Program-made: the position numbers and the translations under genes
Shown here: piece after piece, positions 7,423 to 19,952 of the stretch
How positions within the stretch are numbered: position 1 is the first letter of the stretch
Layout: each line of letters starts with the position of its first letter
The notes under the pieces: model-generated
The model's input: the letters and a program-made list of their open reading frames with translations, nothing else
What the model was told of the DNA's origin: nothing
Databases searched by the model: none
Assembly: GCA_965207385.1 (NCBI GenBank)
Contig: CBDBLZ010000020.1
Coordinates: forward strand, 288,932-352,931
Length of the DNA: 64,000 nt
Source: Rhodothermales bacterium
GTDB lineage: Bacteria; Bacteroidota; Rhodothermia; Rhodothermales; Bin80
Direction: 5' to 3'

Positions 7423-7992
7423 ATGAATCAGTCGGTGTCACCACTTTTGCATGCTACGACGGTCGTGGGTGTGCGAAAGTCCGGCAAGGTTGTGCTGGGC
7501 TCGGACGGACAGGCCACGATAGGCACAACCGTCATGAAGCATCGTGCCAAGAAGGTTCGCACGTTGTTTAACGGGAGCATTCTTGCCGGCTTTGCCGGCG
7601 CTACGGCGGATGCATTCACACTGTTTGAACGATTCGAGGAAAAGCTCCAGCAGTATGCGGGCAACGTGATGAGATCCGCAGTCGAACTGGCAAAGGACTG
7701 GCGAACGGACCGGTACCTGCGGCGGCTTGAGGCGCTCCTCGCGGTGGCGGCGCCGGGCAAACTGCTACTAATAAGCGGCAGCGGGGATGTCCTCGAGCCG
7801 GACGACGACGTTATTGCCATAGGTTCCGGAGGACCCTTTGCGCTCGCGGCGGCTCGAGCGCTGCTCCAGCATGCCGGCAACCTGTCCGCCCGGCAGATAG
7901 TGGAAGAGGCCCTGTCCGTGGCTGCGGAGATATGCATCTACACAAATAGCCATACTACGGTACTCGAAATAGAGGACTCGCCCCAGAATTAG
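7423..7992 (+). CDS. hslV: ATP-dependent protease HslVU, peptidase subunit HslV
   Basis: 189 aa containing ..[60 protein letters not shown]. The catalytic TT is preceded by an 11-residue extension and no in-frame start would give Met-Thr. Confidence 0.95.
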
Positions 7993-15699: not shown

Positions 15700-16176
15700 A
15701 TGTCCATAGTATACCTTACCAGCGAAGCGCTGGAACGCCTGAAGGGCGATTTGCGCCGCGCACGCACGGTCGAGCGCGCGCGCATTTCCCGCGAGATTGC
15801 GGAAGCGCGGGCTCACGGAGATTTGTCCGAAAATGCCGAATACGACGCGGCAAAGGACGCGCAGGGGAAACTTGAAGCGCGCATTGCCCACATGGAAGGA
15901 GTGCTGAGCAACGCCCGCGTCGTCGACGAATCCCGGGTGGACACCTCCCGCGCCTTTATCCTGTCCCATGTACAGGTGCGCAACCATACCACGGGATCCG
16001 AACACCGGTTCAAGCTTGTCTCGGCACAGGAAGCGGACCTGCGGCTGGGCCGTATCTCCATTTCAAGCCCCATCGGAAAAGCACTTCTCGGAAAAGCGCC
16101 CGGGGACGTCGTGGATGTTGCTGTGCCGAGCGGCACCATGCGGCTGGAAGTCCTCGACATTTCGCGCGAGGCATAG
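15700..16176 (+). CDS. greA: transcription elongation factor GreA
   Basis: An internal ATG at 15700 gives MSIVYLTSEALERLKGDL...EARAHGDLSENAEYDAAKDAQ...ISISSPIGKALLGK. Confidence 0.95.
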   Translation: MSIVYLTSEALERLKGDLRRARTVERARISREIAEARAHGDLSENAEYDAAKDAQGKLEARIAHMEGVLSNARVVDESRVDTSRAFILSHVQVRNHTTGSEHRFKLVSAQEADLRLGRISISSPIGKALLGKAPGDVVDVAVPSGTMRLEVLDISREA

Positions 16177-16182
16177 CGCCAT

Positions 16183-17205
16183 ATGATCGACCTCAGAAGC
16201 GACACGGTCACGCGGCCGTGCGCGGGCATGCGGCGGGCCATGTACAACGCCGAAGTCGGCGATGATGTATTCGGCGAGGACCCTACCGTCAACCGGCTCC
16301 AGGAAGAAGTGGCCGATCTCCTGGGCAAGGAAGCGGCCCTCTTCGTGCCCTCCGGCATGATGGGCAATCAGCTGGGCGTGGGTATCCAGACGAGTCCGGG
16401 AGACGAAGTCATTGTCGAACGCAGCTGCCACATCTTCAATTACGAATCCGGTGCTGCGGGCGCGTTGTCCGGCGTGGTCCTGCATCCGCTGGACGGCGAC
16501 CGCGGCGTCCTGGGAGTGGACCAGCTGCGCAGAGCCCTCAGATCCGGCCAGTACTGGGAGTCGGCCTCGCGGCTGCTGTGCCTGGAGAATACGCTTAACC
16601 GGGCAGGCGGACGCGTATATCCCTTCCAGCGACTGAGAGAGTTGACGGACGTGGCGCGGGATGCGGGCCTTTCCCTTCACCTGGACGGCGCCCGCCTGTG
16701 GAATGCATCGGCCGCCAGCGGCACCTCCGAGCGCGACTATGCCTCGCTGTTCGATACGGTCACGGTCTGCCTTTCGAAGGGCCTTGGTGCTCCCGTGGGC
16801 TCGGTATTCTGCGGTACAAGGGAGCTTGTCCGCGCGGCGCACCGCATGCGCAAGCTTCTTGGCGCAGGCATGCGCCAGGTGGGCATACTGGCGGCGGCCG
16901 GACTCTACGCGCTCGCGCACCACCGCAAGGAGCTGGCTGATGACCACGCTAAGGCCAGGCATCTTGCCGACGGGCTTGCCGGGATCGATTCGCTTCGGGT
17001 GGAATTGCCCGAAACCAATATCGTGCTCATACACCTGTTGCGACACGATGTGGAAGCTTCATCCGCGGCGCTGGAAGCGGCCGGCGTGGCCGTCGTGCCG
17101 TTCGGTGCATCCACCATCAGGGCCACCACGCACCGGGACGTTTCCATGGAGGACATGGAGCAGGCCGCAGGTGCGATGCGACACCAATTCGAAGCCGCGC
17201 GATAA
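16183..17205 (+). CDS. ltaE: low-specificity L-threonine aldolase (PLP-dependent)
   Basis: 340 aa with [38 protein letters not shown] and [12 protein letters not shown] (the PLP lysine). Confidence 0.9.
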
Positions 17206-17296
17206 CACCAGAGCAACTCGACACATTCGCGGCCAAGAGCATAGGCACCCACAAGCCACAATAGCGATTCCCGAGAACCAGTAGATACAAGAATTT

Positions 17297-18547
17297 ATGA
17301 CCGCCGAAGTTGCCGTAATGAATCGCAAGGCAGTTGCATTGGCTGCAGATAGCGCGATGAGCATTGGTCATCCCGGAAAGACCTATCCGGTGAACAAGTT
17401 GTTTGCTCTTTCGAAGCGCCATCCGATAGGAGTGATGATATATCACAATGCAGAATTTATGGGTGTGCCGTGGGAAACACTGGTGAAGATGCATAGGCAA
17501 GCCATCAAACCCATAGGCAAGGCAACGGTAGGCGAATACGCCAACTCGTTTCTGGACTTCATTAAATCCGATACAATCTGCACAGAGCAGGCGAAAGCTG
17601 TTAACGTGGTTCGCATAGCCCATGGGCTATTCGGGAGAATCGCTCGAAAAGTCAAGGACCAGGCTGTCGACGGAGCCGAGCAGCAAGGCGCCTCTGTCGT
17701 CGATATCATTCAAGAGCACACCGACACACTTGAGAGCGCCGGCGTCTTGCCATGCATGGAGGAATTCGACGCCGAAGGACTGGTAAGCGCACATGAAGCC
17801 GAATTGGACGAAACGATACGTTCCTGCTTTCGCGGCTTGCGTATTGGTCCCACCGAGCGTCAGGCTCTGCACAATTGCCTTGCTGCCGCCATCAAGAGTG
17901 CCCGGCTGTCGGGAGGGTCTTCCGGGCTCGTTTTCGCCGGATTCGGTGAAGAGGAAATCTTCCCGAGCCTGGTTGAAATAGTAACGGACGGAGTATTTGG
18001 AGATGTCGTCAAGGCATATACCAAGAAACACGTTGACATAGACCGCGCCGGAATCGGAGCGGCAGTCATTTCTTTTGCGCAAAGTGAAATGGTCGGTCGC
18101 TTCATGAACGGAATTGACCCGGAATTCATGGCATACCTACGCCAATTCTTTGAAGACTCTCTGGTTAAAGTAGTCAGCGAATTACTCGGTACCGATTCTC
18201 AAGCCGACCAATTGTCGGAACAAGAGCTGCCCCAACGCCTTGAAATCGTGCGGGGCAACCTTGCAGATTTTGAGGAGGCCACCAATGCGTTTCGCTGGCA
18301 GCGGTATAACGAGCCGATCCTGGACATTGTTAATCTCCTTCCCAAGGAAGAGTTGGCAGGTATGGCGGAAGCGCTCGTGAGCCTGACATCGCTCAAGCGG
18401 AGAGTCTCAACCGAAGAGGAATCTGTCGGAGGCCCTGTCGACGTGGCCGTTATCTCCAAAGGCGATGGTTTCGTTTGGATCAAGCGGAAGCACTACTTTG
18501 ATCCCTCCCTTAATCGGGATTACCTGGCCAGACAATCCTTGACTTAG
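17297..18547 (+). CDS. proteasome-beta-like Ntn-hydrolase family protein with large insertions (function unknown)
   Basis: 416-aa ORF with an ATG start, in a clearly AT-richer stretch. The N-terminus is M-TAEVAVMNRKAVALAADSAMSIGHPGKTYPVNKLF. After Met removal this gives T1, D17 and K33, the same register as the HslV in this window. The C-terminus is ..STEEESVGGPVDVAVISKGDGFVWIKRK. Confidence is high that this is a real CDS and moderate for the fold assignment. Confidence 0.65.
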   Translation: MTAEVAVMNRKAVALAADSAMSIGHPGKTYPVNKLFALSKRHPIGVMIYHNAEFMGVPWETLVKMHRQAIKPIGKATVGEYANSFLDFIKSDTICTEQAKAVNVVRIAHGLFGRIARKVKDQAVDGAEQQGASVVDIIQEHTDTLESAGVLPCMEEFDAEGLVSAHEAELDETIRSCFRGLRIGPTERQALHNCLAAAIKSARLSGGSSGLVFAGFGEEEIFPSLVEIVTDGVFGDVVKAYTKKHVDIDRAGIGAAVISFAQSEMVGRFMNGIDPEFMAYLRQFFEDSLVKVVSELLGTDSQADQLSEQELPQRLEIVRGNLADFEEATNAFRWQRYNEPILDIVNLLPKEELAGMAEALVSLTSLKRRVSTEEESVGGPVDVAVISKGDGFVWIKRKHYFDPSLNRDYLARQSLT

Positions 18548-18561
18548 GCCAATCCACTCGT

Positions 18562-18759
18562 ATGCCCATGAAGCCGATAATACTCGACCCTCCGGACGAT
18601 CCCACCGGCGAAATCACTGACCCCCGCAAAGCCAGGCGACTCGAAGAAATTCGCAGGCAGGCGACGGAAGACGCAGAGCGGGCATTCAGAAAAATCCAGC
18701 CGGCCCTGCGAGAGCTGGCAAGGCAAGTGCGGGAGCAAGGATCAGGCAAGAGCGGATGA
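18562..18759 (+). CDS. small charged hypothetical protein (65 aa), possible partner of the upstream gene
   Basis: ATG 14 nt after the upstream stop, on the same strand. The sequence is MPMKPIILDPPDDPTGEITDPRKARRLEEIRRQATEDAERAFRKIQPALRELARQVREQGSGKSG, which looks helical and charged. I recognise no homolog. Confidence 0.35.
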   Translation: MPMKPIILDPPDDPTGEITDPRKARRLEEIRRQATEDAERAFRKIQPALRELARQVREQGSGKSG

Positions 18760-18825
18760 GGGCCGTCTTGTCTGCCCGGCGCCCCTCCCTGCCGACACTG
18801 TAGGCCGACACCGTAACCTTCGCCG

Positions 18826-19530
18826 CTACGATTCGCCTCGCACGCGCACCGCTAGCGGCGCCATGTGCGTGCACCGGGCTTGCAGCACATCGCCATCGCG
18901 CACGGGACCCACGCCGGCAGGCGTGCCGGTAAAGAGCAGGTCGCCAGGCTCCAGCGTGAATACGGAAGAGCAGTACGCGACCAGCGCCGCAACAGAAAAG
19001 AGCATCAGCGCCGTCGTGCCGCGCTGGCGCTCGACTCCGTTGACATGAAGGCTCAATTCGAGGTTCTGCACATTGGCTACGGAACTGGCCGGTGCAAGCG
19101 GCCCCATCGGAGCGAACGTATCAAATCCCTTGGCGACCGACCACGGAAGCCCCCCCCTCTTGGCCTCCGCCTGCAGGTCACGTGCCGTCATGTCCAGGCC
19201 AACAGCGTAGGCTGCCACGTGGGAGAGCGCCTCCGGCTCCGCAATGTGCCGACCGCCACGGCCGATTACGGCGACCAGCTCCACTTCGTGGTGGACATCG
19301 TGCGACTGCTTCGGAAGCACGATTTCCTGTCCGCTGCCAATGAGCGCCGACGCCGGCTTCAGGAACACGACCGGGCGCTCGGGTACCGGGCTGTCCATTT
19401 CAGCGGCATGCGCCGCATAGTTGCGACCTATGCACAGCAGCTTGCCGGCACGCACCTTCGCGCCTGATCCCGGAAGCACCAGATCCATTTCTTCGACGCC
19501 TCTTAACGCTTCGCGCGGGATCCAACCCAT
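18826..19530 (-). CDS. fumarylacetoacetate hydrolase (FAH) family protein
   Basis: The track ORF extends to 19680. An internal ATG at 19530 gives MGWIPREALRG... The sequence contains KLLCIGRNYAAHAAEM, RPVVFLKP, HHEVELVAVIG, DMTARDLQ and GDLLFTGTPAGVGPV. Confidence 0.85.
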   Translation of the reverse strand: MGWIPREALRGVEEMDLVLPGSGAKVRAGKLLCIGRNYAAHAAEMDSPVPERPVVFLKPASALIGSGQEIVLPKQSHDVHHEVELVAVIGRGGRHIAEPEALSHVAAYAVGLDMTARDLQAEAKRGGLPWSVAKGFDTFAPMGPLAPASSVANVQNLELSLHVNGVERQRGTTALMLFSVAALVAYCSSVFTLEPGDLLFTGTPAGVGPVRDGDVLQARCTHMAPLAVRVRGES

Positions 19531-19610
19531 GCGCCACGTGTAACACAATGCTACCCTTGTTGCACTCTCGCTCCGGTACAAACCCGGTGCCCCAAAGAAG
19601 AGATCACAGG

Positions 19611-19952
19611 ATGTATGCCATTGTCGAGATAAAGGGAAAGCAGTACAAGGTGCGCGAGCAAGATACGCTGTTCGTGCCACTGTATGCAGAGCACGCCGAG
19701 GGTGATACGATCGAGTTGCCCCGTGTACTGCTTCTGGTCAACGAGGAAACCACTATTGTCGGCCGCCCCCACGTCGAAAGGGCCTCGGTGCAGGCCACGG
19801 TGCTCGGACATGTCAGGGCGGACAAGATCATTGTCTTCAAGAAGAAGCGCCGCAAGCGGTACCGCGTGCGGCGGGGGCACAGGCAGCGCTACACACAATT
19901 GCGGGTGGATGCGCTGAAGGTCCTGCAAGAAGAAGACGAACAGTCAACGTAG
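19611..19952 (+). CDS. rplU: 50S ribosomal protein L21
   Basis: An internal ATG at 19611 gives MYAIVEIKGKQYKVREQDTLFVP...KIIVFKKKRRKRYRVRRGHRQRYTQLRV. Confidence 0.95.
   Translation: MYAIVEIKGKQYKVREQDTLFVPLYAEHAEGDTIELPRVLLLVNEETTIVGRPHVERASVQATVLGHVRADKIIVFKKKRRKRYRVRRGHRQRYTQLRVDALKVLQEEDEQST

Follow-up and report, generated by a model that had tools for sequence, protein, structure and literature searches.

A predicted proteasome-like threonine peptidase with two helical insertions and its small downstream partner in a mobile two-gene cassette

Proteasome-like fold and family of the protease

Proteasome-family proteases are textbook self-compartmentalising machines. The subject of this study is a predicted proteasome-like threonine peptidase of 416 residues, encoded together with a 65-residue partner protein in a 64,000-nucleotide stretch of a Rhodothermales bacterium genome (GenBank assembly GCA_965207385.1, contig CBDBLZ010000020.1, positions 288,932 to 352,931 of the forward strand; hereafter the window). 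The closest described families were catalogued by Fuchs, Alva & Lupas (Bioinformatics 2021, PMC8665760), who reported 22 new proteasome-like families, none with a propeptide and none with an assigned function. Among them the PMI families (Proteasome homolog with Multiple Insertions) show very low sequence similarity and were placed in a 'group II' near Anbu and WPH; PMI-2 to PMI-6 carry an insertion between helices H3 and H4, and PMI-5 and PMI-6 an additional one between strands S3 and S4 (PMC8665760). PMI-4 is listed with 501 sequences at nr90 from Proteobacteria, Firmicutes, Actinobacteria, Bacteroidetes, PVC, Cyanobacteria, other bacteria, Euryarchaeota and phages, and PMI-3 with 28 sequences from few taxa (PMC8665760, Table 1). 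The authors saw no genomic context, co-occurrence pattern or AAA+ partner; they considered that both insertion sites may block ring formation and ring stacking, the H3/H4 insertion being predicted to hinder stacking, and that the pore-loop insertion could face outwards as a regulatory cap (PMC8665760).

In the window, the protease gene and the gene of its partner follow each other on the same strand. The 416-residue open reading frame (ORF) with a Met-Thr start is present as the initial annotation described it, and its start is fixed: an in-frame TAG occupies 17282-17284 and the stretch from there to the ATG contains no other start codon, which forces the Met-Thr N-terminus. The features are as follows.

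17297..18547, + strand: protease gene, an ATG-start ORF for a 416-residue proteasome-like peptidase (N-terminal nucleophile (Ntn) type, Thr1) of PMI type without propeptide, as predicted
18562..18759, + strand: partner gene, for a highly charged small protein of 65 residues, type A, 14 nt past the protease stop codon
17300..17398, + strand: catalytic N-terminal segment of the protease (Thr2 codon 17300-17302, Asp18 codon 17348-17350, Lys34 codon 17396-17398)
17573..17911, + strand: insertion 1, a module of five helices that follows H1/H2 and sits at the 'pore loop' site of the proteasome (residues about 93-205)
18113..18337, + strand: insertion 2, residues about 273-347, a long helical hairpin between H3 and H4
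18419..18472, + strand: C-terminal core motif E375-[ST]-V-G-G-P-x-D-V-A-x-I-[ST]-K-G-D-G-F, strands S10/S11
17206..18825, no strand: low-GC islet between ltaE and the FAH-family gene, containing the two-gene cassette only
16183..17205, + strand: ltaE, 5' flank of the islet
18826..19680, - strand: FAH-family gene, 3' flank of the islet

The protease was modelled with AlphaFold2. A run with 35 close homologs was discarded (predicted local distance difference test, pLDDT, <50, conserved core) and 150 diverse sequences were used instead, which gave a model with a pLDDT of 92.6 and a predicted template modelling score (pTM) of 0.90. When this model was compared with the PDB by Foldseek, the top 50 matches were all 20S beta subunits or Anbu, with E-values from 4e-5 to 1e-3, probabilities of 0.99-1.0 and target-normalised template modelling (TM) scores of 0.39-0.52; the best-scoring BFVD entry comes from a phage and is named 'proteasome beta type-2 subunit' (E 2.4e-6, TM 0.58). 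On the strength of this model the protease almost certainly has a proteasome-like fold, and the earlier description of the protein as a proteasome-beta-like Ntn hydrolase is borne out. Links at the level of sequence are marginal or non-significant, and the assignment to the proteasome superfamily rests on fold and not on sequence. A search of the family hidden Markov model (HMM) against PDB sequences placed the Thermoplasma 20S beta subunit (1pma_B) on top at E=0.037. In this alignment Thr2 of the family pairs with the mature Thr1 of 1pma_B, and both the VGGPIDVAVISKGDGFV of the family and the C-terminal VGGPVDVAVISKGDGFV stretch of the protease pair with SGGMIDVAVITRKDGYV of the Thermoplasma subunit. 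The proposed likeness of the C-terminus to 20S beta holds as far as this alignment goes, its closeness in sequence being marginal. A single-sequence search of the PDB with the protease gave no match.

The catalytic residues are essentially invariant. No substitution of Thr2 or Asp18 occurs in 416 distinct homologs (truncations only), and Lys34 is replaced once; in 357 of the 416 a single residue, Met, stands ahead of the Thr. The condition set beforehand for dropping the assignment, a lack of conservation at these positions among homologs, thus did not arise. Once this Met is removed, Thr2, Asp18 and Lys34 fall into the T1/D17/K33 register, which had been reported as intact in the window. Judged from this conservation, the Thr1 nucleophile would be exposed by removal of the initiator Met alone, with no propeptide needed, and the protein would have Thr1-dependent proteolytic activity. 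Residue G45, which is Gly in 93.8% and Ala in 3.6% of the homologs, may be the equivalent of the oxyanion Gly47, as judged from its strand position in the model and not from superposition. In the C-terminal core motif E375 is conserved in 97%, [TS]376 in 98.5% and V377, D382 and G391 each in 99% of the sequences, with G378 and G379 in the same 94-99% band.

The elements of the model were mapped to the canonical fold by their order and not by superposition. Read in this way, S1-S5 correspond to strands 3-8, 12-18, 20-23, 28-37 and 44-50, and the core H1/H2 to helices 59-69 and 78-89. The strands of S6-S9 fall at 209-261, helix H3 at 264-271, helix H4 at 350-370 and strands S10/S11 at 381-396, after which comes a short C-terminal helix. 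Insertion 1 is made of helices 97-124, 134-147, 159-165, 167-177 and 185-200, the next strand being 209-215, and insertion 2 of helices 275-300 and 310-345, the next element being H4. The S3-S4 region (residues 20-37) is short and holds no insertion. Both of the large helical insertions claimed from the sequence are thus present, with bounds that had to be moved from residues 60-200 and 265-385 to those listed above. In one 468-residue homolog (P0049) a tandem duplication of ~37 residues was observed in the PWETLIK...H1/H2 region, where GVPWETLIKKYRSSIGSESKETIRQYVAHFMGGINT occurs twice (alignment A1, columns about 60-140).

Compared with the archaeal and actinobacterial 20S beta subunits (PF00227, MEROPS T1), the protease has the same fold (target-normalised TM 0.45-0.52), the same catalytic register and the GG-x-(I/V)DVAVI-x-K-DG-(F/Y)-V strand, but it is about twice their size owing to the two helical insertions, lacks a Pfam match, has no alpha subunit, propeptide or unfoldase, and is mobile and patchily distributed; a heptameric barrel is doubtful. 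Anbu (5nyg chains, E about 1.5e-4) ranks with the best structural matches, which fits the 'group II' placement of the PMI families; unlike the protease, Anbu has no two large insertions, and its operon partners are missing at the protease loci. HslV belongs to the same superfamily and shares the T1/D17/K33 register, as had been noted for the HslV of the window itself (7423..7992, PF00227, 81% identical to HslV of Rhodocaloribacter litoris), but HslV is a vertically inherited housekeeping enzyme whereas the protease is borne on an islet and has no HslU-type partner. In the HslV of the window the TTVVG nucleophile motif is preceded by 11 residues, an extension shared by close relatives; it may be either a propeptide that needs removal or a systematically early start call. 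The connectase (DUF2121), an archaeal protein ligase confined to methanogens, is likewise a proteasome homolog with a Met-Thr start; it forms no barrel, and its action is directed at a specific partner protein, which makes it a possible functional analogy. It differs in lacking H1/H2 and in having a two-helix lid between S3 and S4 (PMC8665760), whereas the protease keeps H1/H2 and has its insertions elsewhere.

The protein had been called an orphan, and this has to be withdrawn. A word-indexed search gave more than 6,658 matches. An exhaustive search yielded 5,025 clusters (50% identity) under a cut-off of E<=1e-3, and 2,291 of them have E<=1e-30. Nearly all members have 400-450 residues; all lack a name or are labelled 'hypothetical', and Pfam domains are absent throughout. 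They occur in Gemmatimonadota, Proteobacteria, Acidobacteriota, Nitrospirota, Cyanobacteria, Planctomycetota, Chloroflexota, Bacteroidota, Bacillota, Actinomycetota and Spirochaetota, in several archaeal lineages and in phages; the protease matches phrog_5990, which has no assigned function, over its full length (E 7e-96). At three loci (L009, L074, L080) a frameshift or stop codon divides the family gene into two adjoining ORFs; such copies are pseudogenes that turn up now and then, or errors of assembly.

Nor is the protein of a new kind, since its architecture was published in 2021 (PMC8665760), with no function assigned. Insertions after H1/H2 and between H3 and H4, with no S3/S4 insertion and no propeptide, fit PMI-3 and PMI-4 only, and the taxonomic spread and abundance of the family match the PMI-4 row, unlike the rare and narrow PMI-3. 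The family is likely to be PMI-4, by architecture and distribution as compared by description and not with the representative HDY66466.1, and the protease is most likely a new member of it. Like PMI-4 (and the rarer PMI-3) it has the Thr1/Asp17/Lys33 core without propeptide and the same insertion sites, and like PMI-4 it is abundant, widespread and without a linked AAA+ unfoldase. The 2021 study reports no conserved context for PMI-4, whereas here a small downstream partner accompanies the protease gene at virtually all loci, and copies of the cassette were located at moron sites of prophages, at the ends of satellites and on plasmids. No literature on PMI function or on phrog_5990, including any later characterisation, was found.

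The small partner gene

Three unrelated homologs each have a gene of 61-72 residues directly 3' in their gene-called contexts. When the 161 family genes with enough downstream sequence (from genomes, IMG/VR and phage records) were taken together, 159 were followed on the same strand by an ORF of 40-110 residues starting no more than 60 nt past the stop codon. Control long ORFs from the same loci are followed by such a small ORF in 41% of cases and, because this rate is high, sequence (HMM) evidence was relied on for the partner. An iterated HMM of the type A partner, the type present in the window, finds 13 loci, all of the near clade, and the HMM of a type B partner, with the motif YxSxxEFExxFFP...P..FG..LA.E.L..IR..L, finds 44; every one of these lies directly 3' of a protease gene, and among 26,346 ORFs no match to either HMM lies away from one. 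The remaining loci are mostly covered by at least 12 further partner sequence clusters. The start of the partner overlaps the stop of the protease in 34 of 55 HMM-supported cases, in 13 of them by 4 nt; a further 20 starts are no more than 35 nt away. The 65-residue companion, which had been noticed 14 nt downstream in the window, is therefore real and co-occurs with the family. The partner is very probably linked to the protease in function. It looks like a conserved, operonic gene and apparently a new result; to our knowledge, neither the partner nor the mobile carriage of the pair has been reported.

Partners have a median length of 60 residues, of which 34% are charged, and their net charge is basic. 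The partner in the window has a Pro-rich N-terminal part and a predicted C-terminal amphipathic helix. It is 70% identical over 46 residues to its counterpart in L169, a Rhodothermales contig considered below, and 13 synonymous-only codon changes in 63 aligned codons are consistent with a coding gene. It matches no Pfam, NCBIfam or PADLOC family. Trypco1 (PF19493) was considered as its identity and set aside, as the only match had E=0.033 and just 2 of 39 partners match at all, with E>=0.03. Homology between types A and B is not demonstrated (hhalign probability 17%), and no homology to known antitoxins was found. Fusions of the partner were not seen either, the partner-profile search giving only 12 standalone small proteins.

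Several sequence features recur among the partners (e.g. L051:10566-10748, L167:6299-6475, L113, L125). A hydrophobic-hydrophobic-Pro motif about one third into the protein is present in 41% of them, compared with 15% of shuffles, and comes largely from one homologous group. Several types end in aromatic residues (NSFFxxLL, SYFC, NYFSG), and in many type A and type B partners a D/E-P dipeptide stands just ahead of the C-terminal helix. Three phage records in GenBank include an annotation of the partner. In a prophage of Escherichia coli ETEC-2265, an unannotated ORF of 49 residues (MSLKQAYERTQPKSINDFFQLS...SNFFTKLNK...) lies directly after WP_000123148.1 (L254:7264-7413, equal to NZ_CP023346.1 1793133..1793282), hence RefSeq annotation misses the partner; this ORF is of the same partner type as those of Streptococcus satellite phages.

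Foreign composition and mobile carriage

The islet is compositionally foreign, as had been suspected from its AT-rich sequence. Windowed G+C content (GC) is 0.49-0.57 across about 17200-18600 and 0.63-0.67 in both flanks, and GC at third codon positions is 0.58 in the protease gene and 0.64 in the partner gene, compared with 0.76 in ltaE. No integrase adjoins the islet, no tRNA lies within 10-26 kb of it, in agreement with the initial annotation, and no convincing flanking repeats surround it. A terminator was not found 3' of the cassette, nor was a sigma-70-type promoter, although sigma-70 patterns may not suit Bacteroidota/Rhodothermota. An RNA partner of the protease was set aside, as Rfam has no match in 16-20.5 kb. 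An empty ltaE-FAH junction was not recovered, a metagenome scan with LtaE having given only relatives of at most 59% identity. On the opposite strand, ORFs of 327, 168 and 151 residues (16063-17046, 17117-17623 and 17627-18082, all - strand) overlap ltaE or the protease gene; they are unsupported and look like the shadow ORFs typical of high-GC DNA.

The contig L169 shares the gene order greA-ltaE-[cassette]-...-FAH-L21-L27-SurA with the window. Identity between the two is 89% for LtaE and 86% for FAH compared with 69% for the protease and about 70% for the partner; this reflects either far quicker evolution of the cassette than of the flanking genes or the arrival of distinct alleles at a single hotspot. 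The ltaE-FAH gap of L169 also carries extra low-GC cargo beside the cassette, namely a gene pair (L169:7646-9410) that corresponds to the PADLOC candidate PDC-M38A/B (E 3e-74 and 2e-34). PDC-M38A is here an AAA_15/AAA_21 ATPase and PDC-M38B a DUF3226 protein, and both genes are low in GC. Given this pair in the gap, the site behaves as a variable cargo hotspot in the lineage. Other near-clade copies adjoin HEC-03B and transposases, PDC-S20 (a KAP NTPase), or a DUF499/DUF1156/SNF2 cluster, and a defence association of the near clade is suggestive. At locus L171 (3865-5238, 8369-8944), a 62% identical homolog (P0004) has DDE and rve transposase genes as well as a HEC-03B-like ATPase in its flanks; the gene calls there show no small partner, not counting the 1.1-kb gap after P0004.

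Mobile elements carry the cassette in many places. At least 251 relatives are present in IMG/VR. The cassette is found at the 3' end of Streptococcus satellite phages and at the end of a Streptococcus prophage, between Q/Dam and holin in a Providencia phage and an E. coli prophage, directly after a cI-like repressor (helix-turn-helix) in another E. coli prophage, and among methyltransferase morons in one Porphyromonas phage. Plasmid copies are rhizobial or come from Pantoea, Ruegeria and Enterococcus. The family occurs in 22 of 5,426 complete E. coli genomes, in prophages every time; most family copies are at non-phage chromosomal sites. The copy after the cI-like gene (L255:5786-7189, NZ_CP062811.1, WP_231531568.1) occupies the position that rexAB has in phage lambda. 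Its start is annotated 33 codons ahead of the internal MTAEIVVINN..., the N-terminus of the family; such a start would bury Thr1 and is probably mis-called.

The surroundings were also searched for partners of known proteasome-like systems. No AAA+ unfoldase, alpha subunit or Pup system was found in the islet, in the gene-called contexts or among 137 nearest neighbours, and the Anbu-operon families (ATP-grasp, alpha-E, transglutaminase) are absent from the neighbour scans, as had been stated for the window. A capsid or prohead-protease role in the Porphyromonas phage was discarded, both functions being annotated elsewhere in that phage genome.

Possible roles of the cassette

The reading we prefer, to which we give a probability of roughly 0.45, is that protease and partner form a self-contained, horizontally mobile two-gene cassette acting in conflicts between mobile elements and hosts. 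The first gene would encode a cytoplasmic threonine peptidase of the proteasome family, free-standing and substrate-selective, in which Met removal exposes Thr1. The second gene of the operon would encode a basic, fast-evolving protein of ~60 residues, which we infer to bind the protease as its cognate regulator, most plausibly holding it inactive or setting its specificity. The pair might serve prophage or satellite exclusion, abortive infection or toxin-antitoxin-like addiction, release of the protease leading to cleavage of specific cellular or viral proteins. It is the positions after prophage cI, after Q and at satellite ends that suggest a conflict or toxin-antitoxin-like role; the chances that the cassette has a conflict role are about even. 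That the partner is specifically an inhibitor is a good deal less likely. The same caution applies to the broadest form of the proposal, a widespread unrecognised conflict system whose effector is a non-compartmentalised threonine protease checked or targeted by a hypervariable 60-residue partner, which we offer only tentatively.

The cassette can also be compared with the toxin-antitoxin and abortive-infection cassettes carried as prophage morons, such as rexAB of lambda after cI. Like them it is a compact operon of two genes whose reading frames overlap; its partner is small and evolves fast, its composition is foreign and its insertion sites are scattered. It has the traits of a type II-like toxin-antitoxin module in being a mobile, patchily distributed two-gene operon with a small cognate partner. 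It differs in having no homology to a known toxin, antitoxin or PADLOC model, and in its order, the enzyme gene coming first and the partner second.

Several observations weigh against this interpretation. A toxin-first order is the less common arrangement in toxin-antitoxin modules, and neither protease nor partner has a match in PADLOC-DB 2.0 even at E<=10. The genes nearest to the cassette at 80 chromosomal loci are of many kinds, housekeeping for the most part, and there is no conserved third gene: 173 Pfam families are represented among these 137 neighbours, and no family recurs in more than three of them. General defence-island enrichment was rejected as a rule, PADLOC matches among the neighbours being few and generic. 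On the side of the enzyme, the proteasome kinship read from the sequence is not significant in comparisons with PF00227 and HslV: the protease has no Pfam or NCBIfam match even at E<=10, PF00227 included, and a profile-profile link to HslV, although in the right register, lacked significance (hhalign probability 1%) with the full-length protein as with core-only segments and was not used. The identification with PMI-4, as a comparison of descriptions, belongs with these points.

Three other explanations were weighed. The partner could be a substrate or precursor that the Thr1 enzyme cleaves or, like a connectase, ligates, the product being a protein tag or a mature peptide, in loose analogy to Pup in the proteasome system of actinobacteria. 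The always co-encoded partner, in an apparent 1:1 operon, would agree with this, as would the hydrophobic-hydrophobic-Pro motif common to many partner types (41% against 15%), the conserved YxSxxEFExxFFP block of type B and the aromatic tails of several types, and the connectase is a precedent for a monomeric proteasome homolog acting as a sequence-specific ligase (discussed in PMC8665760). However, no motif is demonstrably common to types A and B (hhalign probability 17%), the Pro motif comes largely from one homologous group, the connectase signature is missing (H1/H2 are present and there is no S3/S4 insertion), and neither fusions nor extra maturation or export genes were found; it is also a weak argument against it that the partners are hypervariable though the active-site region of the enzyme is nearly invariant. 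We regard this explanation as improbable.

Less probable still is a housekeeping or stress protease that is self-compartmentalising like HslV, BPH or Anbu, with the partner as an Ump1-like assembly chaperone or as a gate or cap subunit. Ump1/POMP is indeed a small, largely disordered protein, and the enzyme has its fold and its catalytic residues in common with compartmentalised proteases. The pore-loop insertion could form an outward regulatory cap, but both insertion sites are predicted to clash with ring formation and stacking (PMC8665760). The spread is patchy (22 of 5,426 E. coli genomes, all in prophages, besides phages, satellites and plasmids), the composition is foreign, the host already has HslV and no AAA+ partner is linked. 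The most remote of the three is a catalytically inert proteasome-fold scaffold, for instance a phage structural or assembly protein with a non-catalytic N-terminus. Proteasome alpha subunits show that the fold can be used without catalysis, and in the Porphyromonas phage the gene stands among morphogenesis genes; yet a prohead protease and capsid genes are encoded at other places in that phage, most copies are chromosomal and non-phage, and 0-1 substitutions of Thr1/Asp17/Lys33 in 416 sequences, together with the retained Met-Thr, are hard to explain without catalysis. Of the three roles that had been suggested for the protein from its sequence, that of a conflict-system effector fits the contexts best, with the connectase-like ligase weighed above, and a self-compartmentalising barrel fits least.

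Since the 2021 catalogue left its 22 families without function or context, a fixed cassette with mobile carriage gives a testable handle on what is most likely one of them, and the most abundant insertion-bearing type turns out to come with a hidden, often unannotated small partner. Experimentally tractable copies exist in E. coli prophages, e.g. WP_000123148.1 in ETEC-2265. Should the conflict reading be false, the pair would still be a clean system for studying a non-canonical proteasome homolog with a cofactor. If it is true, the protease would be the first case of a proteasome homolog serving as an effector in abortive infection or exclusion, or as one of the toxin type; the largest 'new proteasome homolog' family would gain a function, and phage-host warfare a new enzymatic class, with a barrel protease fold turned into a regulated, free-standing effector.

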